This document shows, in pieces, positions 15,224 through 50,144 of a stretch of 64,000 nt of DNA (positions are counted from its first letter, which is position 1; each line of letters starts with the position of its first letter). Under the pieces are notes generated by a model, which saw only the letters and a list, made by a program, of their open reading frames with translations, was not told the DNA's origin and did not search any database. Source of the stretch: an uncultured Blastocatellia bacterium. Lineage in GTDB: Bacteria; Acidobacteriota; Blastocatellia; HR10. The position numbers were made by a program, and so were the translations under genes. The stretch is taken from assembly GCA_937934295.1 (NCBI GenBank), contig CALHAI010000013.1, positions 5,865 to 69,864 on the forward strand, in the 5' to 3' direction.

Positions 15224-15359
15224 CTTGCCGAGTCAGTATATCGCACTCTCGAGCGCTTGATCAATGCGCCGCTCTCGCGCCAAAATGACCAACTTGATCT
15301 CGTGAGGCGAAGCTGAAGAGGCGAGCCGTCGCCGGGAGACCAACTCGAGGAGGAGGCCG

Positions 15360-16865: not shown

Positions 16866-16869
16866 GGTC

Positions 16870-18576: not shown

Positions 18577-18634
18577 CGGGGGCAACTGTAGCCAACGCCG
18601 TCGCTCCCCGTCAACACATCGGCTCCTCCCATGC

Positions 18635-18664
18635 TTGACACTCCGGCCTTGAGTTCGCTATCTT
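18635..18664 (+). promoter_or_regulatory. sigma-70-like promoter candidate for rplM-rpsI (TTGACA-18 nt-TATCTT)
   Basis: TTGACA at 18635-18640, 18-nt spacer, TATCTT at 18659-18664. GGGGGAG RBS about 8 nt before the rplM ATG. Confidence 0.4.
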
Positions 18665-18700
18665 TAACGCTCGCTTTGAAGTCGAGCATCGAGGGGGAGC

Positions 18701-19135
18701 ATGAAGACTTACGTTCCGAGCGGGAAGGATTTGGACGCGCAGCGGAAATGGTACGTCGTGGACGCGGCGGGCATGACTGTTGGCCGATTGGCCTCGCGCG
18801 TGGCGCGGATCCTCATGGGGAAGCATAAGCCGACATATACTCCTTTTCTGGATCTGGGTGATCATGTGATCGTCATCAATGCGGCCAAGGTGCGGTTCAC
18901 GGGGCGGAAGTGGGAGCAGAAGATCTATCGGTATCACACGGGGCATCCCGGCGGATTGAAGGAGATTCCGGCCAAGCGGATGCTGGCCGAGCATCCGGAG
19001 CGGATCGTGGAGTGGGCGATCCTGGGGATGTTGCCCAAGACGAAATTGGGCAGGAAGAAGGCGAAGAGGCTGCGCGTCTATGCCGGGCCGGAGCACCCGC
19101 ATGAGGCGCAGCGACCGGAACCTTTGACCGTGTAA
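18701..19135 (+). CDS. rplM: 50S ribosomal protein L13
   Basis: [49 protein letters not shown]. Confidence 0.9.
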
Positions 19136-19144
19136 GGAGTCGCT

Positions 19145-19540
19145 ATGGCGGAGTTGATCCAATATTGGGGGACGGGACGGCGCAAGACCTCGACGGCGCG
19201 CGTCATCTTGCGTCCGGGGGCGGGGCAGATCACGATCAATGGGCGTCCGCTTGAGGCCTATTTCCCACTCGAGCGGCATCGCGCCGTCATTCGGCAGCCG
19301 CTGTTGTTGGCCGATGCCTTGGGCAAATTCGATATCCGCGTGAACGTGCGAGGCGGGGGGATCACCGGGCAGGCTGAGGCGATCCGACACGGGATCGCGC
19401 GCGCTCTGCTTGAATTCAATTCCGATCTGCGCCCCCGCTTGAAGGAAGCGGGGCTGCTCACCCGCGATGCGCGCATCAAAGAACGCAAGAAATATGGGCA
19501 GAAAGGAGCCCGAAAGCGATTCCAATATTCCAAGCGGTGA
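19145..19540 (+). CDS. rpsI: 30S ribosomal protein S9
   Basis: C-terminal [17 protein letters not shown] and central [19 protein letters not shown]. Confidence 0.9.
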
Positions 19541-19724
19541 GTGTTCGAGAGCGACTCTCCCCGGACATCGTGGGCGATCTCTGGCGAGGTTCGCGCGCAT
19601 GATTCCAGGGGGGCCTCCGTGGGCTTCCCGACCCTGCTTGGCCGTCGTCGCGATGGGAGATCCGCGCGCGACCGAGTGCGGGCGGCCGAGCGCGAAAATC
19701 ATATCGAGGAGGTGAGGGACGGCG

Positions 19725-20531
19725 GTGGTCACGATCACGATGAAGGAGCTGCTCGAAGCGGGTGTCCACTTCGGCCATCAGACGCACCGTTGGAATCCGA
19801 GGATGCGCAAGTTCATCTTCGGCGAACGCAACGGTATCCACATCATCGACCTGCAGCAGACGCAGCGGTATTTCCGCGAAGCCGTGAAGTTCGTGACCGA
19901 GATGGCGGCGCAGGGCAAGACCTTCCTCTTCGTGGGGACGAAGCGACAGGCGCAGGATGCCATCGCCGAAGAAGCCACGCGATGCGGCCAGTTCTATGTC
20001 AACCATCGTTGGCTGGGCGGCTTGCTGACGAATTTCCAGACGATTCGGAAGTCCATTCAAAAGCTCCACGAGCTGGAGCAGATGAAGGCCGATGGGCGGC
20101 TGGAACAGCTTCCCAAGAAGGAGGCGATTCGCCTGGAACGCAAGCGGGCGGCGTTGGAGAAGAACTTCGCCGGCATCCGCAACATGACCAGATTGCCTGA
20201 CGTGCTCTTCGTCATTGATACGGAGAAGGAGGAGCTGGCCGTTCGGGAGGCCAAGCGGATGGGCATCCCTATCGTCGCCGTCGTGGATACGAATTGCGAT
20301 CCGGCGGGGATTGAGTATCCCATTCCGGGCAACGACGACGCGCTGCGCGCCGTGCGTCTCTTCGTCTCCAAGATCGCCGACGCCATCATCGAGGGGCGGC
20401 AAATGTTAAAGGAAGCGGCGCCGGAGGTGGTCGAGGCGGCTGCGACACCATCGGAGGCGGAAGCCTCGCTGACGAGTGACACGGGGCACTTCTTGGAGGA
20501 GATAGAGGAGGAGATTCCCGAGCGGGAGTGA
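19725..20531 (+). CDS. rpsB: 30S ribosomal protein S2 (start GTG 19725 or ATG 19740)
   Basis: [41 protein letters not shown]. Confidence 0.9.
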
Positions 20532-22572: not shown

Positions 22573-23748
22573 TCACAACCGGTGGGCCGTGCCCGTATTT
22601 GAGGCCGCGCGCGTTCGCTCTCGCGCGGCGATGGTTTCAAAGGTGGCCGATTCGTTACTGAGGGGGGAAGATCTCACAAGTGCTCCTCCGACTTCTTTAG
22701 CGAAGATCAGTCGCGTCGGGTCCTTCGTATCCACGTCCACGATCACGACATCGCCCGTCTCGATCTGCCGCGTCGCCACTAAGTTCGAGAGCGGGAAGAC
22801 CAGAAATCGCTCCAGCGCCCGCCGGAGATGGCGCGCCCCGTACTTGTAATCGGTTCCCTCGCGCAGGAGCAGCTCCTTGGCTGCCTCCGTGCACGTGAAG
22901 ACGAACTTTGGCGCGGGAGATTTCATGATCCGTTGCTGAATGAGTTTGAGCTCAATCTCCAAGATCTGCCGCAGGTGCTCCTCCTTGAGCGAGCGGAAGA
23001 CGACGACCTTATCAATGCGGTTCATGAACTCGGGGGAGAAGCGACGGCGAGCGGCCTCCAGAGCCGTGCGATAAATCTTCTGATCCACGACCGAATCCTG
23101 CTGCCCCTGTTTCGGGGCGAATCCGATCCCGCCCGAGATCAGCTCGGCCATCTCTTTGGCCCCGAGATTCGAGGTCATGATGATGATGCAGCGGGAGAAG
23201 TCCACCTTGCGATTGTCTCCGAGCGTGAGCGTCGCCCGATCCAAAATGCCCAACAGGAGCTGCCAGAGCGCGTCCGAGGCCTTCTCGATCTCATCAAACA
23301 GCACGAAGGTGAGTTGCAACGTCTCTGTGTGATAACGATCCAGGTTCTCTTGGCTCAGAAGCGGTGGGGTCTCGCGGTGCCCGAGGTAGCCGGGCGGCGA
23401 GCCGATCAGCTTGGCGATCTCGTGGCTGTGTTGGAACTCTGCGCAGTCGATCTTCACCAGGGCGTTGGGATCGCCGAAGAGGATCTCCGCGCAGGCCTCG
23501 ACAATACGGGTCTTGCCCGATCCCGTCGGTCCCAGGAACAGGAGCGATCCGATCGGCCGTCCCGGTGGACAGAGTCCGGAGAGATAGACTTGGTAGAGAT
23601 TGGCCAGACGCCGCACGGCCCGATCTTGACCGACGATGCGCTCCAGAAGCTTTCGCTCGAACTCCTCGACCTGCGGGTGCCGCCGCTCTGGATTGAGCAG
23701 GACTCGCGTTGGCGCCGCCATGTTGTCAGTCCTCCCTCGCCGTTGCAC
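22573..23748 (-). CDS. stand-alone ClpA/ClpB D2-type AAA+ ATPase (AAA_2 plus D2-small domain; no N-domain, D1 or middle domain)
   Basis: ERIVGQDRAVRRLANLYQ...LLFLGPTGSGKTRIVEACAEILFGDPNALVKIDCAEFQHSHEIAKLIGSPPGYLGH...IIIMTSNLG...FSPEFMNRIDKVVVFRSL is a canonical ClpB-D2 motif series. Only 391 aa. Confidence 0.6.
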   Translation of the reverse strand: MQRRGRTDNMAAPTRVLLNPERRHPQVEEFERKLLERIVGQDRAVRRLANLYQVYLSGLCPPGRPIGSLLFLGPTGSGKTRIVEACAEILFGDPNALVKIDCAEFQHSHEIAKLIGSPPGYLGHRETPPLLSQENLDRYHTETLQLTFVLFDEIEKASDALWQLLLGILDRATLTLGDNRKVDFSRCIIIMTSNLGAKEMAELISGGIGFAPKQGQQDSVVDQKIYRTALEAARRRFSPEFMNRIDKVVVFRSLKEEHLRQILEIELKLIQQRIMKSPAPKFVFTCTEAAKELLLREGTDYKYGARHLRRALERFLVFPLSNLVATRQIETGDVVIVDVDTKDPTRLIFAKEVGGALVRSSPLSNESATFETIAARERTRAASNTGTAHRL

Positions 23749-23886
23749 TTCACCACCGCCTTAGACGTCGGCTCCGCGCGCGATGTTGCCTCCGAGACGA
23801 TTATAGAAAGCGCGGCGCGGGGCTCGTCAAGAACCGGTTGGGCGAACAGCTTGGGTGACAAGTTCCCGGAGGGGGAATTTTTTCGC

Positions 23887-23913
23887 TTGACAACCCGTGA
23901 TCTTGCCTATAAT
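23887..23913 (+). promoter_or_regulatory. sigma-70-like promoter candidate for the 24.1-33.0 kb operon (TTGACA-15 nt-TATAAT)
   Basis: Perfect -35 at 23887-23892 and perfect -10 at 23908-23913, but a short 15-nt spacer. About 225-nt leader to the KAS III ATG. Confidence 0.3.
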
Positions 23914-24139
23914 CTTCGTTACTCGCCGGTGCTCGGTCTCGCGAGTATACGGCTGCTCCGCAAATGGGCGGAGTCAGAGAACCGGTCGAAGGAGCTGAGA
24001 ACGTGCATCTACGGAAGCGACGGTGTGGGGGACAGTTCGCTCATGGCGGGAGTCCCCGCGCGATCCCTTGTCTGTGGATTGACCTTCACCCGCGGCCAGA
24101 TCTTCGGCACGTGGGACCCCTCTCTCAGGAGAAGCGGCG

Positions 24140-25123
24140 ATGATCTACACCTACGCGAACATTCCAGCGCGAATTGCAGCGACGGGCTCGTACTTACCAG
24201 AGCGCGTGATCACGAACTCGGAGATCCTCGGGCTTGAGGAATCGGATGGACAGATTCGGCGACTCCTGGGAGCCGTGGAACGCCGTGCGGTGAGCGAAGA
24301 GGAGGCTTGCTCGGATATCATCGTCAAAGCGGCGCGGCGCATTTTGGAAACGGCCCGCCTCTCGCCTGAAGAATTGGATCGCATCATCGTCAGTGCGACC
24401 CCAGGTGATTACCATGAGCCCTCGACGGCCAGCGTCGTTCAATATAAGCTCGGAGCCTATTGTCCGGCCGTAGACGTGGGCATGTCCTGCGTCGGATGGG
24501 TCGCCGGGGTGGATTACGCCTTGCGCTGCATCGCCACGGGAGAGCGGCGCGTCCTCGTCTTGGCCGGGACGATCGTCTCCCGTGGGAATCCCTTTCGCAA
24601 TCCGATGCATCGGGCGATCTTTGGCGATGGCGCTGGCGGAGTCCTGCTCGAAGCGGCCGATCGCGGATACTTCTTCTCGGGCGGGCTTTGGACCAAGGGA
24701 GAGTACTACGACGTGATCACCATGCCGCATGAAACGTCCCTGCCTTCGTCCCGCATCCCGCCTGAGTATCGGGGGAGTTTCTACATGGGGCGGCGCGAGA
24801 TCATGTTCGAGGCCTTGCGCAATAACTTGGGGGCGTGCATCGAGGGGGCGTTGCACGCGGCCGGGATCTCGCGCGAGGAGATTGACGTGGCCTTCATCCA
24901 TCAACCGAGCAAGCCGCTCTTTGAGGAAGCGGCGCGAGTGGCCGGCATTCCGCGCGAGCGCATCATCCAGGATTACGAGCGCTACGGGAATACGATCTCG
25001 GCGGAACTCCCCATCTCGCTCGATGAGAACGTGCGTCGCGGTCGCGTGAAGCGAGGGGATAAGATCCTGATGGTGACCTTTGGCGCGGGATTCAATGCGG
25101 GCATTTTGGTCTTCGAGTATTGA
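24140..25123 (+). CDS. 3-oxoacyl-ACP synthase III (FabH-like KAS III)
   Basis: Thiolase-fold KAS III. Cys in VDVGMSCVGWVAG, His in AFIHQPSK, Asn in YGNTISAELP. 327 aa. Confidence 0.75.
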   Translation: MIYTYANIPARIAATGSYLPERVITNSEILGLEESDGQIRRLLGAVERRAVSEEEACSDIIVKAARRILETARLSPEELDRIIVSATPGDYHEPSTASVVQYKLGAYCPAVDVGMSCVGWVAGVDYALRCIATGERRVLVLAGTIVSRGNPFRNPMHRAIFGDGAGGVLLEAADRGYFFSGGLWTKGEYYDVITMPHETSLPSSRIPPEYRGSFYMGRREIMFEALRNNLGACIEGALHAAGISREEIDVAFIHQPSKPLFEEAARVAGIPRERIIQDYERYGNTISAELPISLDENVRRGRVKRGDKILMVTFGAGFNAGILVFEY

Positions 25124-25252
25124 AGCCTCTGCGACATTGATCCCTCTGTCTGGACATCGGTCGGCTCCACTGATGGCCGATGACCATGCGACAGCGTGCA
25201 TGCGCCGGTCACATAGCGGGAGATGTTGCGCGAGCGATCTTCGAGGAACAGC

Positions 25253-26551
25253 ATGAAGGGACGGATCCTCTTCGCCCCGGCTTCGACGGTCCTCGCTCAT
25301 GCCGGACGCTGTCTGATGATCGCGCGCGAGCTGGACCGGCGCGGCCATCATGTCCTTTTGGCAGGTGCCGCTCGATTCCTTCGGGAGTGGACGCTTCAGG
25401 ACCCGCGCCTCAGCTATGTCGAGCTGCCGGACGTTCCGGCCGGCGAAGGGCTTCGCATCCTGCGGTCGCTCTGGAAAAGGCCCGATGAGCGATGGCTCCA
25501 CGCGCATGTGCGCGCGGAGCTGGAGTTGCTCGATCGTGCGCGACCTGATTTGGTCGTCGTGGATTTTCGGTTGACGATGTTCATCTCGGCAAGGGTGCGA
25601 AGAATCCCCATTGTTTCCCTTCTTGGGGGACGATGGCTTTATCCCTATGCCGCAAGACCCTATCGGGCATTCCGGACGGCGCCAGCCTTTTGGGTTCGGC
25701 GTCTACTGCGAGAGCACATCAGCGACGTGGTGATCCCCTGGGGCTTCCGCTGGCTCCTGCGTTATAAGATTCGACCCTATCGGCGCTTGCTCGCGCACTA
25801 CGGCTTGGAGCCGAAGCGTGACCTGTGGGAGCTTTTTCTGGGCGATCTGAACCTGGTTTTGGACAGCGAGCTTCTGGCGCCGACGCATCCGTTGCCGGAG
25901 AATTTCGTGCGCGTCGGCCCTGTGCATTGGGAACCGTCATTGCCGGAACCGGAATGGCTGGCAGAGTGGACGAGCCGACGCCCGGTCATCTACGTGACGC
26001 TCGGCAGCACGGGACATCCTCGGTTATTTCGACGAGTGCTCGATGTCCTCGGCCGCACGCCGTATCGCGTCATCTTGACGACGGGGGGGCAGATCAGCTT
26101 CGCACCGGAGGAGATCCCGGAGAATGTGCGCGTCGAGGCATTTCTGCCTGGACGCCTGGTGATGGAGCGCTCAGATCTGGTGATCTGCCATGGTGGAGCC
26201 GGGACCATCTATCAAGCCATCGCCGCGGGGACACCCTGCCTGATTGTCGCCACGCATTTCGAGCAGGAGTTGCTCGGACAAGAGGTCGAGGAGCAAGGAG
26301 CGGGACGGATGCTCGCTCTTCCTGAGATCTTGGCAGACCCGATGCGGCTCAGTCGGACCCTGGAAGAAATGCTCGAGCATCGGGAAGCGTACGCGCAGAA
26401 CATACGGAGATTGCAGCGCGCCCATCGCGCTCTCGATGGGGTGAAGGCGGCGGCGGCGGCGATCGAGACGTTTTTGAGCGATCGGCTTGGGAATCGCGAA
26501 CCCGTCAGCACATCCGCTCGACTTGTTCTTGAAGCAGGAGGAGGGCCGTGA
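25253..26551 (+). CDS. GT1-family (MGT/UDP-glycosyltransferase-like, GT-B) glycosyltransferase
   Basis: N-terminal RILFAPASTVLAHAGRCLMIARELDRRGHHVLLAG and C-terminal VICHGGAGTIYQAIAAGTPCLIV...EQELLGQEVEEQGAG match macrolide/MGT-type GT1. Confidence 0.7.
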   Translation: MKGRILFAPASTVLAHAGRCLMIARELDRRGHHVLLAGAARFLREWTLQDPRLSYVELPDVPAGEGLRILRSLWKRPDERWLHAHVRAELELLDRARPDLVVVDFRLTMFISARVRRIPIVSLLGGRWLYPYAARPYRAFRTAPAFWVRRLLREHISDVVIPWGFRWLLRYKIRPYRRLLAHYGLEPKRDLWELFLGDLNLVLDSELLAPTHPLPENFVRVGPVHWEPSLPEPEWLAEWTSRRPVIYVTLGSTGHPRLFRRVLDVLGRTPYRVILTTGGQISFAPEEIPENVRVEAFLPGRLVMERSDLVICHGGAGTIYQAIAAGTPCLIVATHFEQELLGQEVEEQGAGRMLALPEILADPMRLSRTLEEMLEHREAYAQNIRRLQRAHRALDGVKAAAAAIETFLSDRLGNREPVSTSARLVLEAGGGP

Positions 26552-27816
26552 TGGAGCTGCTCTTGTGGGGGATCGCCGCGTTCTGGCTCGCGCTCCTTAC
26601 GATCGGGACGGTTCTGTGGCGGTATCGGCCTTCTCTCTGGCCAGCGGAGCCGATGGAGCGAGGTCTGGCAGAGGTGGCTTTCGAGTGGCCTTTAGTCTCA
26701 GTCCTGGTCCCGGCACGGAATGAGGAGCATCGAGTCTTGCGCGAGGCCATCGGGGCGCTCCTGCGGCAAGACTATCCTCGGTTGGAGATCATTGTCGTCA
26801 ACGATCGTTCGATCGATCGCACATTGGCAATCCTGAAGGAGATGGCGCAACGAGACTCCCGATTGCGCGTCATTGATGGGGAAGAGCCGCCTCCCGGATG
26901 GCGAGGGAAGCCGTTTGCGCTTCAGCAAGCGTTGGCTGAAGCCAGAGGGGAATGGATCCTGGCCGTAGATGCCGATGTCATCGCCCATCCGGCTGCCGTG
27001 CGGACGGTGCTGGCGCTGGCGCGCGAGCGCGCCCTGGATGCCTTATCCCTGCTGCCGAAATTCGAGTACGTGAGCTTCTGGGATCGCGTCATCGAACCTC
27101 AAGCGCTGAACCTCTTGCGCTTGGGCATGCTTATCGCCGCATGGCGGGAGAAGAGGCGTGGAGCTCGCTCGCCTGAAGGAGCGCGGCGACGGTGTTCGTC
27201 TCATCCCCTGGCACTCCTGTCGGCTTATGTGGGTGATCCGGCGTTCACCATCGGCGCGTTCACGCTCGTGCGACGGGAGGCTCTGGAGGACATTGGCGGA
27301 TACGCCGCGATTCGAGGAGAAGTGCTCGATGAGACGATCCTTGGCATGCGGTTGAAGCAGCTCGGGTATCGCGTCTTCGCCATGGAAGGCGCTCCCCTGG
27401 TGCGCACGTCGGCGCGCGTGACGCTGGCGGAGATCTGGGAAGCCTACAGCCGTTCGATCTGTTCGGCTGTCGGGCGGAGGTGGCTCGTCGCGCTCATCGG
27501 AGGCGGCGTGATCGTGCTGCTTGCTGTTTTCCCACCGCTGGTGCTCATTGGGGCTCTCATGGAGATTGTGAGGGTGGGGAGCCCTTCGGTGTCCGAAGCG
27601 ATCCCGGCGGCCATCGCTTACGTGGCGATGAGCAGTCTGAGTTTCCGATTGAGCGCAGCCGATCGCCCGACCCTTCTCTCGGCCAGTCTCGCCTTCCTCG
27701 GCTATGCGATCTTCGCGGCCATCGCCTTTGCCGTGCCGTGGCGTCTCTGGTCCGGCGTGGGCGTCATGTGGCGCGGACGATGCGTCTACGGGGTAGGGGA
27801 AGATGTATCGGGGTGA
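26551..27816 (+). CDS. membrane-embedded family-2 glycosyltransferase
   Basis: LVSVLVPARNEE...IIVVNDRSIDRT...AVDADV (DxD) form the GT2 core, flanked by N- and C-terminal TM helices. tgATG overlap with the upstream stop. Confidence 0.7.
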   Translation: MELLLWGIAAFWLALLTIGTVLWRYRPSLWPAEPMERGLAEVAFEWPLVSVLVPARNEEHRVLREAIGALLRQDYPRLEIIVVNDRSIDRTLAILKEMAQRDSRLRVIDGEEPPPGWRGKPFALQQALAEARGEWILAVDADVIAHPAAVRTVLALARERALDALSLLPKFEYVSFWDRVIEPQALNLLRLGMLIAAWREKRRGARSPEGARRRCSSHPLALLSAYVGDPAFTIGAFTLVRREALEDIGGYAAIRGEVLDETILGMRLKQLGYRVFAMEGAPLVRTSARVTLAEIWEAYSRSICSAVGRRWLVALIGGGVIVLLAVFPPLVLIGALMEIVRVGSPSVSEAIPAAIAYVAMSSLSFRLSAADRPTLLSASLAFLGYAIFAAIAFAVPWRLWSGVGVMWRGRCVYGVGEDVSG

Positions 27817-28414
27817 GGAGACGACGACCAGTTGGGCGTACTTCGAGTACCTCCTGGGAGTGGGGTATCCGCGATGGCTCGTGCGCTTGGTCTTCGCCGT
27901 GTTGGAGCGGTCGTTTCGGCCTCACCTCCGGGAATTTCACGGGCGCGTGTTGGATGTCGGATGTGGCATCGGGCATTTCTTCCGCGTCTACCCGGATGCC
28001 TTCGGCGTGGATCACAACTTCTACTGTGTGCGATATTGCGTCGAGCGGGGATATCGGTGCGTGCAGGGCGATCTTTACCGCCTCCCCTTTCCGGCGGGGT
28101 CATTCGATGGCGTCCTGCTCTGCCACGTCTTGGAACATCTGGAGGCTCCGGAAGCGGCGCTGGAAGAAGTCCATCGCGTTCTCCGGCCAGGTGGCGTGCT
28201 GAGCATTCGCGTGCCGACGGTGACCGGGTTCAAGGTGGATCGCACGCATAAGACCTTCTTCGATTATCCGCGTCTGGCGCGCGCGCTCGCGCCGTGCGGA
28301 TTCTCCATCGTGGCCAAGCGCTACTATCCGATCCCGTGGCGTTGGCTCGGTGAGTTGATCGTGTACAACGAGCTGCGTGTTCTGGCCGTCAAGCGAGACG
28401 TGATAGAGTCCTGA
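27803..28414 (+). CDS. class I SAM-dependent methyltransferase
   Basis: VLDVGCGIGHF (motif I) ... VLLCHVLEHL ... LRPGGVL. Confidence 0.7.
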   Translation: MYRGEETTTSWAYFEYLLGVGYPRWLVRLVFAVLERSFRPHLREFHGRVLDVGCGIGHFFRVYPDAFGVDHNFYCVRYCVERGYRCVQGDLYRLPFPAGSFDGVLLCHVLEHLEAPEAALEEVHRVLRPGGVLSIRVPTVTGFKVDRTHKTFFDYPRLARALAPCGFSIVAKRYYPIPWRWLGELIVYNELRVLAVKRDVIES

Positions 28415-28425
28415 GGCAACGGGAG

Positions 28426-29328
28426 ATGGTCCGACGCTTCATCGTCGAACATGCGGCGTGGCATCTGCTCGCGCGGGCTTGGAGCATCACCCGCGCTGTC
28501 GTCGGAGCGCTTCCGGAGGGCCGGCTCATCCTTCTGGACGCGCGCGTGCGGCCGATCCCCCGATACGGCTATGGGAAGCCGCCGCATGCCACGCTCTATG
28601 AGTTGTTGGACCGGAATCGGCGGGCATATCGAGAATTCCTGGAGCGTTTCTTGGACTTTCGGGAGGACCTCTGGCGTATTCCCACGTTCACGTTCGATCC
28701 TCAAAGGCCCTGTTGGCGAGGGGGGAACCTTTGGATTCCGGCTTTAGATGCCGTGAGCCTCTACGGTTGGCTTCGTCTGTTGTCGCCGCGCCGATACGTC
28801 GAGATCGGCTCCGGCTATTCGACGCGCTTCGCGCGTCAGGCCATTCGAGACGGGGGGCTGACGACGCAGCTCATCGCCATCGATCCACGCCCGCGGGTCG
28901 CCGTGGGCGCGCTCTGCGACGTCGTCCTCCGCGAGCGCCTCGAAGCGCTAGACCTTCGGCTCTTTGACGAACTAGAAGCTGGCGACATCCTCTTCATTGA
29001 CGGTTCGCACCGATGCTTCATGAATTCGGACGTGACGGTCGTCTTCCTCGAGATCTTGCCGCGCTTACGGCAAGGAGTGCTCGTGCAATTCCACGATATC
29101 TTTCTGCCTTACGATTATCCCCCCCATTGGGGGAAGCGGTATTATTCGGAGCAGTATCTGCTGGCCGTACGGCTACTGGCGCGCGAACCAGGCTTTGAGG
29201 TCCTTCTTCCCAATGCCTTCATCAGCCGGGATCCGGAGCTGTCGCACGTCCTGGATCCGCTTTGGGAACATCCGGGAATGCAGGGGGTGAACCGAAATGG
29301 AGCCTCGTTGTGGATTCGAATCGCTTGA
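28426..29328 (+). CDS. methyltransferase-fold protein (Methyltransf_24/CmcI-TylF-like), function unclear
   Basis: YVEIGSGYSTRFARQAI...ILFIDGSH is a Rossmann MT-like motif. Weak recall-based call. Confidence 0.4.
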   Translation: MVRRFIVEHAAWHLLARAWSITRAVVGALPEGRLILLDARVRPIPRYGYGKPPHATLYELLDRNRRAYREFLERFLDFREDLWRIPTFTFDPQRPCWRGGNLWIPALDAVSLYGWLRLLSPRRYVEIGSGYSTRFARQAIRDGGLTTQLIAIDPRPRVAVGALCDVVLRERLEALDLRLFDELEAGDILFIDGSHRCFMNSDVTVVFLEILPRLRQGVLVQFHDIFLPYDYPPHWGKRYYSEQYLLAVRLLAREPGFEVLLPNAFISRDPELSHVLDPLWEHPGMQGVNRNGASLWIRIA

Positions 29329-30217
29329 GCGCGCGCCGACGGCGAGCCTCTCGACGAACGTTCGCTCCCAGAGAGAGGTTGATGTCGAGCCCATCCGGAC
29401 GCTGAAGGCGCCGCTTCTCATCCTCGGCATGCACCGTTCGGGGACATCGGTGCTGACACATCTCTTGAGCGAGCTTGGCCTGATCACCGGATGGCGTCTC
29501 AATAATGAGGAATCGGCTTTTTTCCACCGCTTGAACCTCTATATCGAGCGGAAGACAGGCGGACGTTGGGACGATCCGGAACCGATCGCGCGAGCGGTCG
29601 AGGATCCCGCCCTCATGTCGCGCCTCTTGTGGCACCTGCGGCGAGAGGCCCTCAGCCCGAAGGTTGTCCTCTATTTCGGGCTGCGGCTCTTCAGACGCTA
29701 CAAGACGCTGGAGCGCATAGATCGACCTTGGGGCTGGAAGGATCCACGGAACACGTTCACCTTCGACATTTGGCGGCATTTATTCCCCGAGGCGCGTATC
29801 CTCCACATTTATCGTCATGGGGTAGACGTCGCGGCGAGTCTTCGAGCGCGGGAGTTGAATTCGCGCGTTCACGCCTTATCCCGCTATGCCTCGGCACGCT
29901 GTCGTACGCTCTCCGGGGCCTTCCGGTTATGGCGCCTCTATGTGGAGAAGGCGTTCTCCCTTTGCCCGAGTGGAGGACAAAAGGCCATCTTCCACGTGCG
30001 GTATGAAGATTTGCTCAGTGATCCAGAGCCGACCTTGAAACGACTTCTCGAATTTTGTGGGCTTCAGCCCACTTCGAGTGATCTCCGCAGGCTCCTGAAG
30101 AGCGTAGATGCCGGGCGAGCCTTCGCCTTTCGCCGGGATCCGGAATTGCGGGCCTTTTACGAGCGTGTGAAGGATGATCCGTGGATGCGCTCCTTGGGAT
30201 ACGCTGACGTGGAGTGA
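29297..30217 (+). CDS. sulfotransferase family protein (PAPS-binding 5'-PSB loop)
   Basis: PLLILGMHRSGTSVLTHLL is a P-loop-like 5'-PSB motif typical of sulfotransferases. Confidence 0.6.
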   Translation: MEPRCGFESLERAPTASLSTNVRSQREVDVEPIRTLKAPLLILGMHRSGTSVLTHLLSELGLITGWRLNNEESAFFHRLNLYIERKTGGRWDDPEPIARAVEDPALMSRLLWHLRREALSPKVVLYFGLRLFRRYKTLERIDRPWGWKDPRNTFTFDIWRHLFPEARILHIYRHGVDVAASLRARELNSRVHALSRYASARCRTLSGAFRLWRLYVEKAFSLCPSGGQKAIFHVRYEDLLSDPEPTLKRLLEFCGLQPTSSDLRRLLKSVDAGRAFAFRRDPELRAFYERVKDDPWMRSLGYADVE

Positions 30218-30220
30218 GTG

Positions 30221-31141
30221 ATGGGGATTCGGGGCACGATCGTCGCCTCCATGTATAACGCTCGGCCCGATGTGCTGGAGGTGATCGAGCGACTTTTCTT
30301 TCCGAGCCTGATCCGCAATGCGTCCCCACAGTTGCAGTTCATTCTGCTCGATGATGCGTCTCCACTTCGGGAGGAGACCGAGCGCCTGGTCGCGCGATTC
30401 GCTTCGGATTTGCGCCGGGCGTTCGGCGACTTTCAATTCCTGCGAAATCCTCGCAATTTGGGATTCGCCGGCAGTTACAATCGCGGGATGCGCCGAGCCG
30501 AGGGGGAACACGTGATCCTCATCAATGACGATGTCTATCTTCCCCAAGGGTCGTTGGAAAGTCTGCTGGACATTTTGCACAGCGAGGTGGGCGTTGGACT
30601 TGTCGGCCCGGTGACCAATTGGGTGTGCGGGTATCAGAACACGCGCCTTTTCCCCCGCTTGAAGGATTTCTCGCCCTCGGAGCTGGAGCGCATCGAGGCA
30701 TTCGCCCGCGAGTTGCGGCGGCGCGTCGGGCGCCGCGTGATTCCCGTCACTCGGCTCATCGGGTTCTGTCTCGCCATCTCGGGCGATCTTATTCGCGAGA
30801 TTGGGTATTTGGATGAGTCCTTCACGCATGGCCTCTACGAAGATGACGATTATTGTCTGCGGGCGCGTAAGGTCGGGTACCGGGTGCTTGTGGACGTTGC
30901 GACGTTTGTCGAGCACGGAGGGCCGCGGGGTGGGGGGATGTCGTTTCGGCAAAGTTTCCTGAAGACGCTCGTGGCGGCGTTCACCAACGGGGTACGTCTG
31001 GCGAGGAAACACGATCTCCCCCTCTCGGCCATCGCGCGACAGAGCCTGGAGGGCTTTTTGCAGTTCTTCCTGGATCGCCATACCGTCACTGCGTATCTGA
31101 AGCCCTATCTGACCGATGGAGTGGAAGGACGCCATGCCTGA
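30221..31141 (+). CDS. family-2 glycosyltransferase (soluble)
   Basis: ILLDDASP...ILINDDVYLP (DxD)...EDDDYCLRA. GGAG RBS 7 nt before the ATG at 30221. Confidence 0.7.
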   Translation: MGIRGTIVASMYNARPDVLEVIERLFFPSLIRNASPQLQFILLDDASPLREETERLVARFASDLRRAFGDFQFLRNPRNLGFAGSYNRGMRRAEGEHVILINDDVYLPQGSLESLLDILHSEVGVGLVGPVTNWVCGYQNTRLFPRLKDFSPSELERIEAFARELRRRVGRRVIPVTRLIGFCLAISGDLIREIGYLDESFTHGLYEDDDYCLRARKVGYRVLVDVATFVEHGGPRGGGMSFRQSFLKTLVAAFTNGVRLARKHDLPLSAIARQSLEGFLQFFLDRHTVTAYLKPYLTDGVEGRHA

Positions 31142-31979
31142 GCGCGATGTCCTCCTGACGGGGATCCCGCGATCCGGGACGACGCTCGCGTGTTGGTTGC
31201 TCAACCACCTCCCCAACGCCGTCGCGCTGGTGGAACCGCCAATGGGCGTCCGATTTTGGCTCGGCCGCTGGGATCGAAGGCAAGCGAGCGCGAGCGTTCG
31301 CCAATTCTTCATGAGGGTCCGCAAGCGCATCGCTGCGCGGCGCCCGGTTCCATCTTTCCACATTGATGGAGAGGTTCCGGCCAATACCGTGGAGGAGCGG
31401 CGCATGGGGGTATCGCGCCGACGGTTGGCTCGGCCTGGGAAGGTTCTCATGGCGAAACGCCTTTCCGCGCACTTCTGGCTCATCGTGAAGCATCCGGCTC
31501 CTTTCACCGCGCTCTTGAGTGAGCTCACGGGCCATTTCTCCATCTACGCCCTTGTTCGCAATCCTCTGGCCGTCCTCGCCTCGTGGAACTCCGTCCCCTT
31601 GCCGGTGAATAGAGGGCATGTGCCCGCGGCCGAATGGTTCGATCCCTCCCTCCGGAAAACGCTCTCCCGGATCGCGGATCGATGGGAGCGGCAGCTCGCT
31701 CTTCTCGAGTGGTTTTTCGAGATCTATCGGCGCACCCTTCCCAAGACGGCGATCCTTCGCTACGAAGACATCGTCGCCTCAGGCGGGCGCGCGCTCAGCG
31801 TGATCGTCCCGGAGGCCGCCGAGCTCAACGTCCCTTTGCCGAACCGGAATACGAGTCCGCTCTACGATGTCTCGCTCATGTGCGCTCTGGGCGAGCGATT
31901 GCTCAAGACCGATGGGTCGTATTGGGATTTCTACTCGCGGGAGAGTGTGGAACGAGTGATCGCTGAAGTGAGGGGGTGA
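31134..31979 (+). CDS. sulfotransferase family protein (second copy)
   Basis: VLLTGIPRSGTTLACWLL 5'-PSB motif. ATGCCTGA start/stop overlap with the upstream GT2. Confidence 0.6.
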   Translation: MPERDVLLTGIPRSGTTLACWLLNHLPNAVALVEPPMGVRFWLGRWDRRQASASVRQFFMRVRKRIAARRPVPSFHIDGEVPANTVEERRMGVSRRRLARPGKVLMAKRLSAHFWLIVKHPAPFTALLSELTGHFSIYALVRNPLAVLASWNSVPLPVNRGHVPAAEWFDPSLRKTLSRIADRWERQLALLEWFFEIYRRTLPKTAILRYEDIVASGGRALSVIVPEAAELNVPLPNRNTSPLYDVSLMCALGERLLKTDGSYWDFYSRESVERVIAEVRG

Positions 31980-33001
31980 TGCGCCTGGCCGTCGTGGTGC
32001 GTTCGGTGGATGCGCCGAGTCATCGGGTCTATCGGGAGAACGTGGTCCGGGCCCTTGCGGCTTCGGGGATCCATGGGATTCCGATCCGGAGACACGGGCC
32101 GATCCCTCCCGAGTGTGACGTGGTGTGGGATCCTGGACTGGGAATGCGCCCGATTCCCCCGATCTTGCGGGAGAGCCGCGTTCCTGTCGTCGTGACGTTC
32201 CACGGCGCGCGCATCTTCTCGCCCGCTTATGTTCGGAAGGCGGAATGGGTGGTCGCCCGCTTCTACCATTCATGGTTGAAGTCCCGAATTCTGCGGGATC
32301 GAATATGGTTCCGAGAGGTCGTGACGGCGGTGATCGCGCCCTCGCAGTTCGCCGCTCAGGAAGCTGCGGAAGTTTTCAATGTCCCGCTTGAGGGAGTTCA
32401 TGTCATCCCGCACGGCGTTGATCACGCGCTGTTCAGGCCCGACGGAGCGAGGTTCATGCGGGAGCGCCCGTATCTGCTTCATATCTTCGGGGGGAATCCG
32501 ATGAAGAACACCGAGCGGGTTGTTGCGGCGTATGCCCGGCTGCCGGAATCGTCCCGCCCCGATCTCATCGTGATCTCACCCTGGGACTGGCGCATTCTCG
32601 GAAAATTTCGGGTTCGGGGAGTGAAGGTCATCCGACGGCTTGTTCCCCAACCCGAGCTCGCCAAGTGGTATCGAGGAGCCCTCGCGCTGGTCGCGCCTTC
32701 GCTGCGAGAGACGTTCGGGCTCTCGCTCCTGGAGGCCATGTCCTGCGGATGCCCGGTGATCACCTCCAATCGCACGGGCTGTGCGGAAATAGTGGGTGAC
32801 GCCGCCCTGCTTGTGGACCCATGTTCGACTGAGGAGATCGCCGAGGCAATGTGGCGGTTGAGTGCGGACGGTTCCCTGCGGCGGTACTTGCGGGAACAGA
32901 GCCTGAGGCGCGCGCAGGCATTCAGTTGGAGTCGTTCGGCGGCCGAGCATGCGTGGGTCTTTCAGAGCCTCCTGGCCGGAGCCTCCCTCAGATCGGCATG
33001 A
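31979..33001 (+). CDS. GT4-family (GT-B, retaining) glycosyltransferase
   Basis: E(x)7E region FGLSLLEAMSCGCPVITSN and preceding Rossmann halves. tgATG overlap with the upstream stop. Confidence 0.7.
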   Translation: MRLAVVVRSVDAPSHRVYRENVVRALAASGIHGIPIRRHGPIPPECDVVWDPGLGMRPIPPILRESRVPVVVTFHGARIFSPAYVRKAEWVVARFYHSWLKSRILRDRIWFREVVTAVIAPSQFAAQEAAEVFNVPLEGVHVIPHGVDHALFRPDGARFMRERPYLLHIFGGNPMKNTERVVAAYARLPESSRPDLIVISPWDWRILGKFRVRGVKVIRRLVPQPELAKWYRGALALVAPSLRETFGLSLLEAMSCGCPVITSNRTGCAEIVGDAALLVDPCSTEEIAEAMWRLSADGSLRRYLREQSLRRAQAFSWSRSAAEHAWVFQSLLAGASLRSA

Positions 33002-34242: not shown

Positions 34243-35433
34243 TCAATATACGCTGATCTCCCCCTCGATCAGCCGGCGCCAGAGGGAAGGCAGCTCATCG
34301 AGCTTCGCCATCGCCAGTTGGGAAGCGCGACCGCGCAAGCCGCGTGTGAGCCGCCGCGCGCGCAGCTTCAGGTTCACGACCTGAGGCTGCGTGATCGGCC
34401 GGCCGATTTGGCTGAGGATATAGCAGTACGCTTCCTCGACCTCCTCGATCTCTTCGAGGACCTGTTCGGCAATGCGTCGGGCCGTGATGTTGTAGAGCTT
34501 CCCCACGTGGCTGATGGGATTTTTCCCGGCCGTCGCTTCCAGGCTCATCGGGCGAAAGGGCGTGATCAGCCCGTTGACCCGATTCCCACGCCCGACTTGC
34601 CCATCGTCGCCCGCTTCGGCGCTCGTCCCCGTGAGCGTGAGATAGACCGAGCCCTTCGCCTCATCATCGGCGGGATTGACATGCACGGTGACCGGATGCT
34701 CCACAAGCTGTTCGGCGAAGTGCGCGATCTCGCTCTGAATCGCCTGCTTCTTCTCCTGATAATCCGAGAGATCGCGAACATGAGCGGAGACGAAGGCGAT
34801 GGCGACTGTGAGCGCGATATCCTCGCCTCGCCGCATCCCCATCACCTTAATATCCTCCCCGATCTCCGGATAGGTGGCCTTGAGCGGCTCTGAGTTCAGA
34901 AATCGTTCTGTCTCGTAAACCACTCGTTCGAGGCGAGTCAGCGGGGCATAGCCGACGCCGAACGATGTGTCGTTGGCAAGCGGCGTCGTCGTGGCACGTT
35001 GAAAGAGATCCACGAGGTCGGCGCTTCCCGGTCGGATCACGCACTGGAAACGCATGTGCCGCTCGGGATCGAGATGCCGAAAATGCCCCGCGATCCACGC
35101 CGCTGCGGCTTCGCGGTACAATTCCTCGATTGGGACGCGCCGGTTCGCGACGTCGAGCGTCGCGCGCCCGACGAGCATGAAGAGGATAGGATCGAGCATC
35201 TCCCCCCCACCGAAGTGCGAGATCGTGCGCCCGCCGACGAGCAAGGCCTTGTCGAGATTGTAATGGAGGACGCGCCCGAACTCTCTCTCATAGTAGCGGC
35301 AAAGGGCGACGCTCGTGGCCTCGGCGATCCCGTCGCACATTGTATCCGGGTGCCCGACCCCTTTCCGCTCGACGATCTCAACTTCCAGCGCTTCGACTTT
35401 CGGAAAATTCAGATGGTCCACGACGATCATCAT
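34243..35433 (-). CDS. archaeal-type S-adenosylmethionine synthetase (MAT, PF01941-like)
   Basis: [50 protein letters not shown] closely matches the archaeal MAT N-terminus (ERKGxGHPDxxCDGIAE) and not bacterial MetK (GHPDKxCDQISD). AGGGGGG RBS before the ATG at 35433. Confidence 0.7.
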
Positions 35434-35619
35434 CCGCCCCCCTGCTTCGGCGCTCGTTAAACTGTATACCACGCTGAGGGTTTTCGTCCAGGTGGTCTTC
35501 ACAGCTCTTCAGGAGGAGGCGCTCTTGACTCTGCACGATGCGCGTGATAGAAGGTAGCACCTTACTGTCAAGGCGAGGGAGTTGCTGGAAGTTTGACATC
35601 TCTTTACGGAGGTTGGGCG

Positions 35620-44379: not shown

Positions 44380-44613
44380 GATGGGCTCCTCCTTACGCGG
44401 GACATTTTATGATGCAGTGCGAGGATGCGTCAATCCTTCGGAGCGCGTGAAGCGTCGGCGCCATCAGGGGACCGAAAGCTTCCTCCTTCCCGGCCTTCAG
44501 ATCGTCTACCAATCCCCTCTCTTCAATGAGCATCACAGCGAGGGAAGTCTATTTGCGAGAGAGGCGTGAGGCAAGGTGCGGCACACCTTTCATCCGTCGT
44601 GAAGAGCTGGCGT

Positions 44614-46026: not shown

Positions 46027-46199
46027 CGTTCCCCTCTCCTCATCCGAGGATTCTCCCATCTTGGGATCACAGGCATGGGGTAGCAAATCTCATGCCATCT
46101 CCCATGCCGCGCCAAACGCCCATGCGCTCAATCGGTTCTTCGTTGACCGGGGGAAGTCCGATTACACCTGGCGCGGCAAATGCCTCAACCGGTGCGCGA

Positions 46200-46225
46200 A
46201 ATCGCTTCGCGAGCGTGAAGCGATT
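46200..46225. promoter_or_regulatory. inverted repeat AATCGCTTC-N8-GAAGCGATT in a divergent control region
   Basis: 9-bp perfect arms, extendable to 12 bp with one G/T mismatch. Lies between the divergent oxidoreductase and cytochrome operons. Confidence 0.3.
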
Positions 46226-46270
46226 CGGGCAAGCGGCGGCCTCTTTCTTCGGCATGAGGCGAACCTTGGA

Positions 46271-46284
46271 GGGGGAATTCCCCC
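46271..46284. promoter_or_regulatory. 14-bp perfect palindrome GGGGGAATTCCCCC
   Basis: Exact palindrome in the same 410-bp divergent intergenic region. Followed by the half-site-like GGGAGAATTCAC. Confidence 0.3.
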
Positions 46285-46496
46285 AAGGGTGGGAGAATTC
46301 ACGTAGCGCGGCGAAGGCTCGCCCGGCTCTCCCCCTCATGCGACTAAGCTTGCACCAGGCATGGGCTTAAATCCGAAAGGCTGTGGCACGCTTGACCCCT
46401 TCAGGGCGATGCGGTACGGAATTTGCTTGACTCCGAGGCGGAGTTCGCGAAAGCTTGACGTCGGAGAGGGCGTAGGTCGTCAAGCGCGAGGGAGAG

Positions 46497-47671: not shown

Positions 47672-47753
47672 GTCGTTCCTTCAGAGGCTTCATATTGGGG
47701 AGGATGCAGCGTGAGCCCCGTCACGCATGCGTTCCCCTTTGAGGAGGGAGACT

Positions 47754-48539: not shown

Positions 48540-48566
48540 GGCGCTGGGGAGGAAGGGAGGCACCAT

Positions 48567-49004: not shown

Positions 49005-49063
49005 TCTCGCCAGCGTGACTGGAGGATCCACCCCTCGTGCTCAAGGGGGAGAGAGCTGACGTT

Positions 49064-50137
<1,074 letters not shown>

Positions 50138-50144
50138 AGGGAGG

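Follow-up and report, generated by a model that had tools for sequence, protein, structure and literature searches.

Organization of the locus

The operon lies at positions 24140-33001 of the analysed DNA (the window, 64 kb in length), which derives from an uncultured thermophilic Blastocatellia of the order HR10/GAL08, a hot-spring acidobacterium. It consists of nine genes (g1 to g9), all on the plus strand, and Pfam and NCBIfam searches upheld every domain call of the initial annotation: a KAS III, four glycosyltransferases, two methyltransferases and two sulfotransferases. The family motifs are intact in all nine enzymes, and most NCBIfam matches fall far under the equivalog cut-offs. A search of related genomes recovered orthologues of all nine genes in the same order, which marks them as genuine genes rather than chance ORFs. 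The operon is syntenic across all HR10-clade relatives recovered, at the same site, after frr and a ClpB-like gene and before ychF. This insertion point lies between core housekeeping genes. As originally proposed, no transporter or flippase is encoded within the operon, nor was one found in its flanks; exporter, flippase and PAPS-synthesis genes are likewise missing from the window. The only membrane-embedded protein among the nine is g3.

A promoter-like block read from the sequence (23887-23913, plus strand) is located about 225 nt upstream of the g1 ATG and combines TTGACA (23887-23892) and TATAAT (23908-23913) over a 15-nt spacer. Consensus promoters have spacers of 16-18 nt and, since the block falls below this range, a consensus scan with that spacing did not detect it. 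In an alignment of the upstream regions, CTTGACAAC..TCTTG.CTATA(A/G)TCTT is near-invariant at 10 related loci, in contrast to its diverging flanks. The single strong promoter suggested initially is thus backed by conservation in ten relatives but not in its strength, given the non-optimal spacer. The CTCTCAGGAG block (24120-24131, plus strand), whose Shine-Dalgarno AGGAG (24127-24131) precedes the g1 ATG by 8 nt, is unchanged in all 11 aligned upstream regions. An ORF overlapping the g1 start (22828-24237, plus strand) was rejected as spurious, being the antisense of the ClpB-like AAA+ gene (22573-23721, minus strand).

No gap within g2 to g9 exceeds 11 nt, and five of the junctions overlap: by 1 nt at g2/g3 (TGATG) and g8/g9, 14 nt at g3/g4, 32 nt at g5/g6 and 26 nt at g7/g8. 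The view that all junctions overlap or abut holds for these five but not for g4/g5 (11-nt gap), g6/g7 (3-nt gap) and, above all, g1/g2, where a 129-nt spacer intervenes (25124-25252, plus strand; 99 nt when counted to the ATG at 25223). Because of this gap g1 is not translationally coupled to g2, and coupling is not uniform along the operon. Among relatives the spacer ranges from roughly 80 to 190 nt and is poorly conserved in sequence; in this genome it contains no T-run terminator, no significant RNA structure (fold z-score -0.9) and no Rfam match.

Enzymes encoded by the operon

The first gene (24140-25123, 327 aa) encodes a FabH-like condensing enzyme (ACP_syn_III_C, 89 bits in Pfam). Its Cys117-His254-Asn284 triad is invariant across 28 orthologues, and the intact triad suggests a decarboxylative condensing enzyme.

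Among the glycosyltransferases, g2 (25253-26551, 432 aa) is a GT-B enzyme of the GT1/MGT type (Pfam Glyco_tran_28_C and EryCIII-like_C) with the donor motif HGGAGT...EQ; its best start, 25253, gives exactly the product of the public gene call, from which the starts of g3, g7 and g9 were also taken. It reaches 103 bits against the NCBIfam MGT model (cut-off 260), and its nearest PDB structures are the natural-product GT1s CalG2, EspG2, YjiC and OleD. GT1/MGT-type enzymes usually glycosylate small lipophilic acceptors. The integral-membrane GT2 g3 (26551-27816, 421 aa; Pfam) shows by hydropathy membrane-like segments at residues 1-24, 307-345 and 374-400, one at the N-terminus and at least two towards the C-terminus. 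In NCBIfam it scores highest against HpnB (151 bits) and CruG (115 bits), under the cut-off in each case, and the families nearest to it (HpnB, CruG, GT21) glycosylate lipophilic acceptors. The remaining two are a soluble GT2, g7 (30221-31141, 306 aa; Glycos_transf_2, 56 bits), and a GT4, g9 (31979-33001, 340 aa; Glycos_transf_1, 80 bits), which carries the E-x7-E motif.

Two genes encode methyltransferases: g4 (27803-28414, 203 aa) is a class I SAM enzyme (Methyltransf_11) with the motif VLDVGCGIG, and g5 (28426-29328, 300 aa) has the Methyltransf_24 fold (51 bits in Pfam) and no match in NCBIfam or among PDB sequences.

The sulfotransferases are g6 (ST1; 29297-30217, 306 aa; Sulfotransfer_3, 90 bits) and g8 (ST2; 31116-31979, 287 aa). 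Since ST2 scores 23.4 bits in Pfam, below the gathering score of 27, structural confirmation was needed, and it was obtained from a high-confidence model that matches sulfotransferase folds. Both ORFs have the sequence features expected of PAPS-type enzymes. In ST1, placed in a 32-sequence alignment, these are the 5'-phosphosulfate loop H46-R-S-G-T-S51, Glu72, Lys148 (WKDP) and the 3'-phosphate residues Arg173..Asp177..Ser181; in ST2 they are the loop P18-R-S-G-T-T23, Glu40, Lys125 and Arg148..Ser156. Each protein thus preserves its PAPS-binding loop and the Arg...Ser of the 3'-phosphate element; the Glu resembles that of TPST, and Glu and Lys are the candidate catalytic residues. The closest solved structures to ST1 are the mycobacterial Stf9 and Stf1. 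Sulfotransferase glycoconjugate pathways had been described as rare in bacteria, which is true of characterised cases but not of genomes: such sulfotransferases are common, with more than 3000 significant matches for the ST1 family and 590 for the ST2 family in many phyla. Family members often occur in Wza/Wzc/Wzx/Wzy or glycosyltransferase-rich loci, and the distant homologues lie mostly at polysaccharide and not at lipid loci. A sulfotransferase and GT2 pair is also present in a Nitrospinota MAG, its GT2 being weakly similar to g7 (27% identity).

The KAS III and its association with GT1

It could be argued that g1 is a housekeeping FabH that lies upstream by chance, g2-g9 alone forming a glycan pathway that decorates an unrelated acceptor. 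In favor of this, no gene of the locus is more conserved than g1, which has 93% identity to HR10 relatives, comparable to its ribosomal-protein neighbours and to rpsB, tsf, pyrH and frr, against 54-88% for g2-g9. The spacer that separates it from g2 is variable, the window contains no second fabH, its best PDB matches are true FabHs (140-150 bits), and it aligns with E. coli FabH along the full length at 31% identity, triad included. Nevertheless, g1 does not reach the NCBIfam FabH equivalog/subfamily models (198 bits, cut-off 249). In E. coli FabH, Trp32, Arg36 and Arg249 bind CoA and ACP; the aligned positions of g1 are Gln, Leu and Pro.

The genomic distribution of g1 also argues against a housekeeping role. 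No cultured Acidobacteria appear among its 120 best matches, whereas proteins from Hydrogenedentes, Rokubacteria, Entotheonellia and the FCB group are 60-76% identical to it, an unusually high level across phyla; the gene is patchily distributed and accessory. In a Hydrogenedentes MAG the KAS III (71% identity) and the GT1 (48%) are translationally coupled by a 4-nt overlap, with no other cluster genes at the pair; the two are also adjacent in the loci L013, L023, L024, L028, L032 and L034, and 4 kb apart in L040. Judging from this synteny, KAS III-GT1 is a two-gene module that persists in several phyla, which ties the KAS III to the pathway. Other orthologues adjoin FAAL and ACP genes (L029 and L031) or, in L054, an NRPS with GT4 domains together with a PPTase and a thioesterase; still others are fused to PilZ, with an ACP gene alongside. 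Such neighbours point to g1 as a dedicated lipid enzyme, and we consider a housekeeping FabH unlikely.

Variation among relatives

In contrast to the flanks, which are 83-96% identical between relatives, the tailoring genes show 54-88%, the least conserved being g9 (54-71%); g4 has 82-90% identity in HR10 relatives, and its orthologue also follows KAS III-GT1 in L013 and L023. The sulfotransferase count varies from one to three among close relatives, a third type replacing or joining ST1 in L019, L022 and L025. The Methyltransf_24 protein and the GT4 are present or absent depending on the relative (g5 is missing in L003/L011 and L013, g9 in L013), and the membrane GT2 is duplicated in some.

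Proposed product and alternatives

The locus matches no known O-antigen, capsule or Nod pathway at the NCBIfam equivalog level. A sulfated, methylated glycolipid or glycoconjugate, much as postulated initially, stays the best reading, one derived entirely from enzyme families. We give about even chances that the product is an anionic amphiphilic glycoconjugate, that is, a glycolipid with an O-methylated and sulfated oligosaccharide head. The KAS III would make or prime a dedicated fatty-acyl-derived aglycone, to which g2 would add the first sugar, these two enzymes constituting a conserved and possibly horizontally mobile core; g3, g7 and g9 would extend the glycan at the cytoplasmic membrane face, and the two SAM methyltransferases and two PAPS-type sulfotransferases would decorate it, export and PAPS supply being presumably encoded elsewhere in the genome. 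Counting against the glycolipid are the identity level, FabH-like structures and 129-nt spacer of g1, the missing exporter and PAPS genes in the 64-kb window and the mostly polysaccharide-linked sulfotransferase homologues.

These homologues, together with a hypervariable gene content like that of surface-polysaccharide loci, would also fit a sulfated, methylated exopolysaccharide or capsule. In that case g3, which is weakly similar to PgaC/IcaA, NodC and cellulose synthases, would polymerize and export the chain in the manner of a synthase, and the missing Wzx, Wzy and ABC genes would be accounted for. However, the best families of g3 are not processive synthases, no QxxRW-type motif was seen on reading its sequence, and its membrane-like segments number only three. 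No initiating phosphoglycosyl transferase, outer-membrane export gene or chain-length regulator was found, and a pure polysaccharide leaves the KAS III-GT1 core unexplained, making this origin improbable.

An isoprenoid acceptor seems still more doubtful. A carotenoid or hopanoid glycosylated by a CrtX-like GT1 and a CruG/HpnB-like GT2, with an acyl group provided or transferred by the KAS III, the pattern of carotenoid glycoside esters, would suit the top matches of g3, and GT1/MGT enzymes include carotenoid glucosyltransferases. Those matches are far under cut-off, though, neither the window nor the surroundings of KAS III-GT1 in other taxa contain carotenoid or hopanoid genes, and the neighbours of the KAS III orthologues suggest fatty-acyl, ACP-linked chemistry.

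Equally hard to sustain is a small diffusible metabolite or signal (e.g. a glycosylated alkyl-pyrone or beta-keto-acid derivative) instead of an envelope lipid: pyrones, resorcinols and quinolone precursors are indeed products of stand-alone KAS III enzymes, the PDB matches of g1 include PqsD and CorB, the structures nearest to g2 are antibiotic-tailoring GT1s and one KAS III orthologue sits in an NRPS cluster, but primary FabHs match g1 better than the pyrone- and quinolone-forming enzymes, the integral-membrane GT2 is encoded early in the operon and conserved there, and the operon occupies its site between housekeeping genes in every HR10-clade genome recovered.

The operon is an accessory biosynthetic locus, an orphan pathway of a kind with precedent, and the swapping of its decorating genes among close relatives is what one would expect if the product were surface-exposed and strain-specific, as the proposed glycolipid may be.

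Organization of the operon and its putative control elements

The nine plus-strand genes g1 to g9 occupy positions 24140-33001 of the window. With gene starts set to those of the exact public gene products, they encode a FabH-like KAS III (g1, 24140-25123), a GT-B glycosyltransferase of the GT1/MGT type (g2, 25253-26551), a GT2 (g3, 26551-27816), a Methyltransf_11 enzyme (g4, 27803-28414), a Methyltransf_24-fold protein, MT24 (g5, 28426-29328), a Sulfotransfer_3 enzyme, ST1 (g6, 29297-30217), a soluble GT2 (g7, 30221-31141), a protein with a weaker sulfotransferase match, ST2 (g8, 31116-31979), and a GT4 (g9, 31979-33001). The domain calls of the initial annotation were reproduced for every one of these genes with Pfam and NCBIfam. 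Its description of all nine as translationally coupled holds for g2 to g9, which overlap by up to 32 nt or stand at most 11 nt apart (overlaps of 1 nt at g2/g3, 14 nt at g3/g4, 32 nt at g5/g6, 26 nt at g7/g8 and 1 nt at g8/g9; gaps of 11 nt at g4/g5 and 3 nt at g6/g7), but is wrong at the first junction, because g1 is followed by a 129-nt spacer whose length and sequence vary among relatives. A terminator scan found no terminator-like site in this spacer, and its RNA fold is no better than that of shuffled sequences (z -0.9), as also holds for the downstream region (z -0.8). No intrinsic terminator is evident after g9, and terminator-like sites occur at chance frequency (13 found versus 10.4 expected), none of them where the operon ends or between g1 and g2.

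Upstream of g1 there is a promoter-like element on the plus strand, with TTGACA (23887-23892) and TATAAT (23908-23913) separated by 15 nt, a spacing too short for the sigma-70 consensus scan (16-18 nt spacer), which for this reason reported no promoter. This block is almost invariant in ten related loci in which the surrounding intergenic DNA has diverged, and its conservation is a good phylogenetic footprint of what is probably a real promoter. The ribosome-binding block CTCTCAGGAG before the g1 ATG is likewise almost invariant, and the leader of about 225 nt between promoter and ATG is unconserved apart from the promoter and Shine-Dalgarno blocks. A riboswitch or other leader RNA in this 5' UTR or in the g1-g2 spacer was considered and rejected, given that neither had an Rfam match at E<=1.

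Divergent from the operon lies a gene for a ClpB/ClpA-like AAA+ protein of 382 aa (22573-23721, minus strand), whose match to ClpB is confined to the C-terminal D2 half; a conserved TTGACG...TATAAT-like block is found beside it on the minus strand at about 23801-23838. An ORF of 469 aa on the plus strand (22828-24237), overlapping the beginning of g1, matches no family and was rejected as spurious, since it is the antisense shadow of this ClpB-like gene in a genome of 62% G+C.

KAS III and its pairing with a GT1 glycosyltransferase

The Cys117-His254-Asn284 triad of KAS III is invariant in 28 orthologues and aligns with Cys112, His244 and Asn274 of E. coli FabH, and for this reason the enzyme should still be a decarboxylating condensing enzyme, as far as can be predicted from these residues.

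One reading, which we favoured at first, is that g1 is a housekeeping FabH standing by chance upstream of an unrelated glycan pathway. Although the best PDB matches of KAS III are genuine FabHs (140-150 bits) and the protein shares 31% identity with E. coli FabH along the whole length (the score agreeing with the match to PDB 1hn9), KAS III falls below the NCBIfam FabH cut-offs (PRK09352, 197.9 bits versus 249; TIGR00747, 181 versus 292), and Gln, Leu and Pro align with Trp32, Arg36 and Arg249 of the E. coli enzyme, which we take to be its CoA/ACP contact residues. The strong conservation of KAS III (93% identity with two other HR10 species) and the 129-nt spacer behind g1 would also suit a housekeeping gene, but g1 lies outside a fab context, with no fab genes beside KAS III in the window or in any relative. 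Moreover, no cultured acidobacterium is found among its 120 best matches, and it is 59-71% identical to proteins from Hydrogenedentes, Rokubacteria, Entotheonellia and FCB-group MAGs; on these two grounds its distribution appears to be that of an accessory gene spread horizontally and not that of a FabH passed on by vertical descent.

The genomic contexts of the orthologues weigh further against a housekeeping role. In a Hydrogenedentes MAG, the orthologue of the g2 GT1 directly follows the KAS III orthologue with a 4-nt overlap and no other gene of the cluster is present; the same adjacency is found in six further metagenomic contigs, while in a seventh the GT1 lies 4 kb off (KAS III orthologues in this comparison being 63-82% identical). 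Other orthologues are convergent with genes for a fatty-acyl-AMP ligase (FAAL) and an ACP, and at a locus in another contig (L054, 10001-21053) an orthologue 61% identical to KAS III adjoins genes for a PPTase, a thioesterase and large NRPS proteins, one with GT4 domains, in what is possibly a glycolipopeptide cluster. Several homologues are PilZ-KAS III fusions, two of which (L016, 8001-9419; L017, 7471-8889; about 47% identical to KAS III) carry the c-di-GMP-binding PilZ domain at the N terminus and lie directly after an ACP gene, beside NiFe-hydrogenase maturation genes and a histidine kinase gene. Because of the cross-phylum adjacency with GT1 and of the FAAL-ACP, NRPS and PilZ/ACP contexts, we now regard a chance housekeeping FabH as unlikely, and conclude that KAS III and GT1 form a conserved two-gene core, predicted to serve a specialised lipid glycoside.

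Some loci with KAS III orthologues have further neighbours. A B12-binding radical SAM protein with DUF4070 (L040, 604-2205), which may be linked to lipid modification, adjoins a GT1 orthologue 4 kb from a KAS III orthologue. Downstream of another KAS III-GT1 pair (76% and 52% identical), L023 (4877-7489) has two Methyltransf_11 genes and a gene for a PIG-L family de-N-acetylase, a hint that in this relative an N-acetylhexosamine may be the sugar that is added. A Rokubacteria MAG harbours, 1-10 kb from its KAS III orthologue, a cluster (L015, 11615-20978) encoding an ADH, a GT2, a DedA/VTT protein, a 355-aa Sulfotransfer_3 protein, an ADH, a MaoC dehydratase, a ketoreductase and two ketosynthases, which is a candidate for another sulfated-lipid pathway.

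Predicted sulfotransferases

ST1 scores above the Pfam gathering scores of Sulfotransfer_3 (90.2 bits versus 27) and Sulfotransfer_1 (39.3 versus 22), and among solved structures it comes closest to the mycobacterial Stf9 and Stf1, with only 30 bits against Stf9. It has a 5'-phosphosulfate-binding (PSB) loop, R47-S-G-T50, and a 3'-phosphate element, Arg173...Ser181. In an alignment of 32 sequences G49, T50, R173 and S181 are invariant, and R47, S48, K148 and D177 are at least 90% conserved, as is Glu72, 25 residues after the PSB Arg, a candidate catalytic base in view of its position, which resembles that of the Glu of tyrosylprotein sulfotransferases (TPSTs).

The assignment of ST2 draws on its family and on a structural model, given that its Sulfotransfer_3 score (23.4 bits) is below the gathering score of 27 and that the single sequence has no PDB sequence match. 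A sequence search gathered a family of 590 homologues; in 40 of these R19, G21, T23, E40, K125, R148 and S156 are invariant, and an AlphaFold model built from 40 homologues is very confident (pLDDT 95) and predicts a sulfotransferase fold. The family profile aligns GIPRSGTTL...ALVE of ST2 with GVPRSGTTL...CGEE of TPST, an alignment that presumably puts Glu40 at the position of the TPST catalytic glutamate. TPST1/2 are structural relatives of ST2 at 16-18% identity and Foldseek TM-scores of about 0.4, but ST2 lies among glycosyltransferases with no peptide substrate, and nothing points to protein sulfation.

The initial annotation had made its sulfotransferase calls depend on the 3'-phosphate-binding (3'-PB) motif and the catalytic residues, and both calls stand, because ST1 and ST2 show, together with candidate catalytic Glu/Lys residues, the features that define the class of PAPS sulfotransferases, a 5'-phosphosulfate loop with Arg/Lys and a 3'-phosphate strand-turn-helix with Arg...Ser (PMC11625862). 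Both are thus predicted to be PAPS-dependent sulfotransferases. What holds for characterised cases only is the view that bacterial glycoconjugate pathways with sulfotransferases are rare, since ST1 alone has more than 3000 significant matches and such genes are therefore common in genomes.

Homologues of ST1 with 46-52% identity are found in several phyla, at Wza/Wzc/Wzx/Wzy loci, at loci rich in GT genes and in small clusters of sulfotransferase and glycosyltransferase genes. The operon shares with Wzx/Wzy loci and with sulfated exopolysaccharide loci, such as the cyanobacterial synechan xss genes, the placement of sulfotransferases among glycosyltransferases, but differs from them in its KAS III-GT1 core. 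Neither the operon nor the rest of the window encodes Wza, Wzc, Wzx, Wzy, a priming phosphoglycosyl transferase, an ABC transporter or a polymerase, so that the operon does not fit a Wzx/Wzy-, ABC- or synthase-dependent O-antigen or capsule locus; in L004, a locus from another genome, export and polymerisation genes of this kind stand beside the ST1 homologue. A sulfated polysaccharide made by a synthase-dependent route is, in our judgement, an improbable product.

Synteny and variable tailoring genes in HR10

Exact and near-exact copies of the proteins were found in hot-spring metagenomes and in MAGs that carry the label Blastocatellia or "bacterium HR10". The GTDB order HR10 corresponds to the uncultured hot-spring acidobacterial group GAL08 (PMC8787282). 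Scanning a genome collection with KAS III yielded four species-level relatives, and in every relative recovered the operon occupies the same site, between rpsB-tsf-pyrH-frr with the divergent ClpB-like gene on one side and ychF with an archaeal-type S-adenosylmethionine synthetase gene on the other. The latter (34243-35502, minus strand; PF01941, 535 bits) is an archaeal-type gene in a bacterial genome. It is found 1.2 kb downstream of the operon and its two SAM-dependent methyltransferase genes, with conserved synteny in the loci L001 and L003.

Compared with two other HR10 species, the housekeeping genes that flank the operon in the window are 83-96% identical, versus 54-88% for g2 to g9, where the lowest values are those of the membrane GT2, both sulfotransferases and GT4. 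Gene content varies as well. One related species lacks g5, and a third type of sulfotransferase (273-274 aa, Sulfotransfer_3 95 bits; L019, 12253-13074; L025, 13239-14063; also L022) replaces ST1 in two relatives and joins it in one. A more distant relative, with a KAS III of 82% identity, carries a pair of membrane GT2 genes, a single sulfotransferase gene and an additional Methyltransf_11 gene, and is devoid of GT4, MT24 and ST2. The stable part of the operon consists of KAS III, GT1, the membrane GT2 and the Methyltransf_11 enzyme, and the decorating part is swapped among relatives in the manner of surface-glycan loci. That sulfotransferases are exchanged from strain to strain suggests that hot-spring Acidobacteria carry a surface structure on which diversifying selection acts.

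Elsewhere in the window, a minus-strand group (15261-19738), which may be another glycan- or metabolite-modifying unit, consists of a NodU/CmcH-type carbamoyltransferase gene (16870-18585) between two long ORFs without Pfam match (15261-16808 and 18611-19738). The region 43060-51410, with multihaem c-type cytochromes (43060-44379, 46497-47153, 50145-51410), a cytochrome b (49037-50137) and a number of ORFs that match no Pfam family, looks like a respiratory or extracellular electron-transfer module.

A proposed glycolipid pathway and comparison with known systems

The only protein of the nine with membrane segments is g3, in which, as in membrane GT2s of the HpnB, CruG, CruC and GT21 types, a GT-A domain stands between a membrane segment at the N terminus and others at the C terminus. 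The acceptors of these enzymes are hopanoids, carotenoids, ceramide or diacylglycerol. The best families of g3 are HpnB, CruG and GT21, whose members glycosylate membrane lipids, but g3 scores far lower than their equivalog cut-offs (HpnB, 150.6 bits versus 379; CruG, 114.6 versus 600; HpnI, 57.3 versus 310) and no hopanoid or carotenoid genes lie near g3; we therefore consider glycosylation of a carotenoid or hopanoid very unlikely. The GT1 enzyme g2 is below the cut-off of the NCBIfam MGT model (TIGR01426, 103.5 bits versus 260) and above threshold for GT-B/GT1 domains (Glyco_tran_28_C, 58.7 versus 22; EryCIII-like_C, 57.1 versus 31.7); its closest structures are natural-product GT1s that glycosylate small lipophilic acceptors. 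A diffusible natural product as the end product is, in our judgement, very unlikely. Among the methyltransferases, g4 reaches 31 bits against the phthiotriol methyltransferase model (cut-off 300), and g5 has no PDB or NCBIfam match.

Taking together the nearest relatives of g2 and g3 and the contexts of KAS III, the best-supported model, for which we judge the chances to be about even, is a glycolipid. KAS III would yield a fatty aglycone, on which GT1 would place the first sugar; three further transferases would extend the glycan, and O-methylation and sulfation would finish the molecule. Assembly would take place on the cytoplasmic side of the membrane, because all proteins but g3 are soluble and the donors (NDP-sugars, SAM and PAPS) are cytoplasmic. 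A Pfam search of essentially all long ORFs in the 64-kb window found no genes for PAPS synthesis (cysC, cysD, cysN, sat) and no exporter genes, so that the absence of a transporter or flippase noted earlier for the operon extends to the rest of the window. Both functions must accordingly be encoded elsewhere if the model is right.

In its logic, the locus seems most like mycobacterial glycopeptidolipid and phenolic glycolipid (GPL/PGL) tailoring and Nod-factor sulfation, and it is a member of none of these systems. The GPL/PGL systems use GT1-family transferases of the Gtf/Rv2962c type, sugar O-methyltransferases and Stf-family sulfotransferases. The operon resembles them in having an MGT-type GT1, class I SAM methyltransferases and PAPS sulfotransferases, which in those systems act on a lipid-anchored oligosaccharide, and in the strain-variable tailoring, but it has a single KAS III as lipid enzyme, with no NRPS/PKS lipid core or MmpL exporter, its host is a Gram-negative acidobacterium and the sequence similarity is remote. 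As regards Nod factors, NodH and NoeE, like Mesorhizobium KpsS, are sulfotransferases of the Sulfotransfer_3 type (PF13469) with an R-x-G loop that sulfate sugars of lipid-linked oligosaccharides (PMC11625862), and ST1 and ST2 share with them the RSG loop. The operon differs from the Nod-factor pathway in its scores (NoeE model, 19-22 bits versus 500; NodC, 40 versus 550) and in having no chitin-oligomer synthase, deacetylase or N-acyltransferase logic. Matches to the NodC, NoeE, MGT, HpnB, CruG and FabH models were all under the curated cut-offs.

Significance of the operon

Taken together, this is an orphan operon for a predicted sulfated glycoconjugate, with a KAS III-GT1 core that is unusual and found across phyla, and with a product that we wholly infer. 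The literature searched held no description of this gene combination, and on sulfated glycolipids in Acidobacteria and HR10 it offered nothing specific beyond the description of GAL08/HR10 (PMC8787282) and a sulfotransferase review (PMC11625862). The operon is one of many orphan glycoconjugate clusters and breaks no known rule; its enzymology and product would be new and testable and leave established principles uncontradicted. Few bacterial sulfotransferases for carbohydrates or glycolipids have been characterised experimentally (NodH, NoeE, KpsS, Stf0 and a small number besides; PMC11625862), and the operon could be a source of a new sulfated glycolipid and of two or three new sugar sulfotransferases; these enzymes, potentially thermostable, may be useful for enzymatic sulfation. 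Being compact and self-contained, this operon of an uncultured thermophile is a tractable target for heterologous expression, and the KAS III-GT1 module, shared across phyla, offers a concrete and testable lead to a type of glycolipid not yet described.

More tentatively, the KAS III-GT1 pair might be a hitherto unrecognised, horizontally mobile pathway to a new class of bacterial glycolipids, in which a dedicated fatty-acyl-derived aglycone would be glycosylated directly by an MGT-type GT1, and which the hot-spring HR10/GAL08 acidobacteria would have developed further to make an envelope glycolipid that varies between strains and is methylated and multiply sulfated. If this is true, the product would be a bacterial counterpart of the archaeal and mycobacterial sulfoglycolipids, and a sulfated envelope glycolipid would possibly adapt the cell surface to high temperature.
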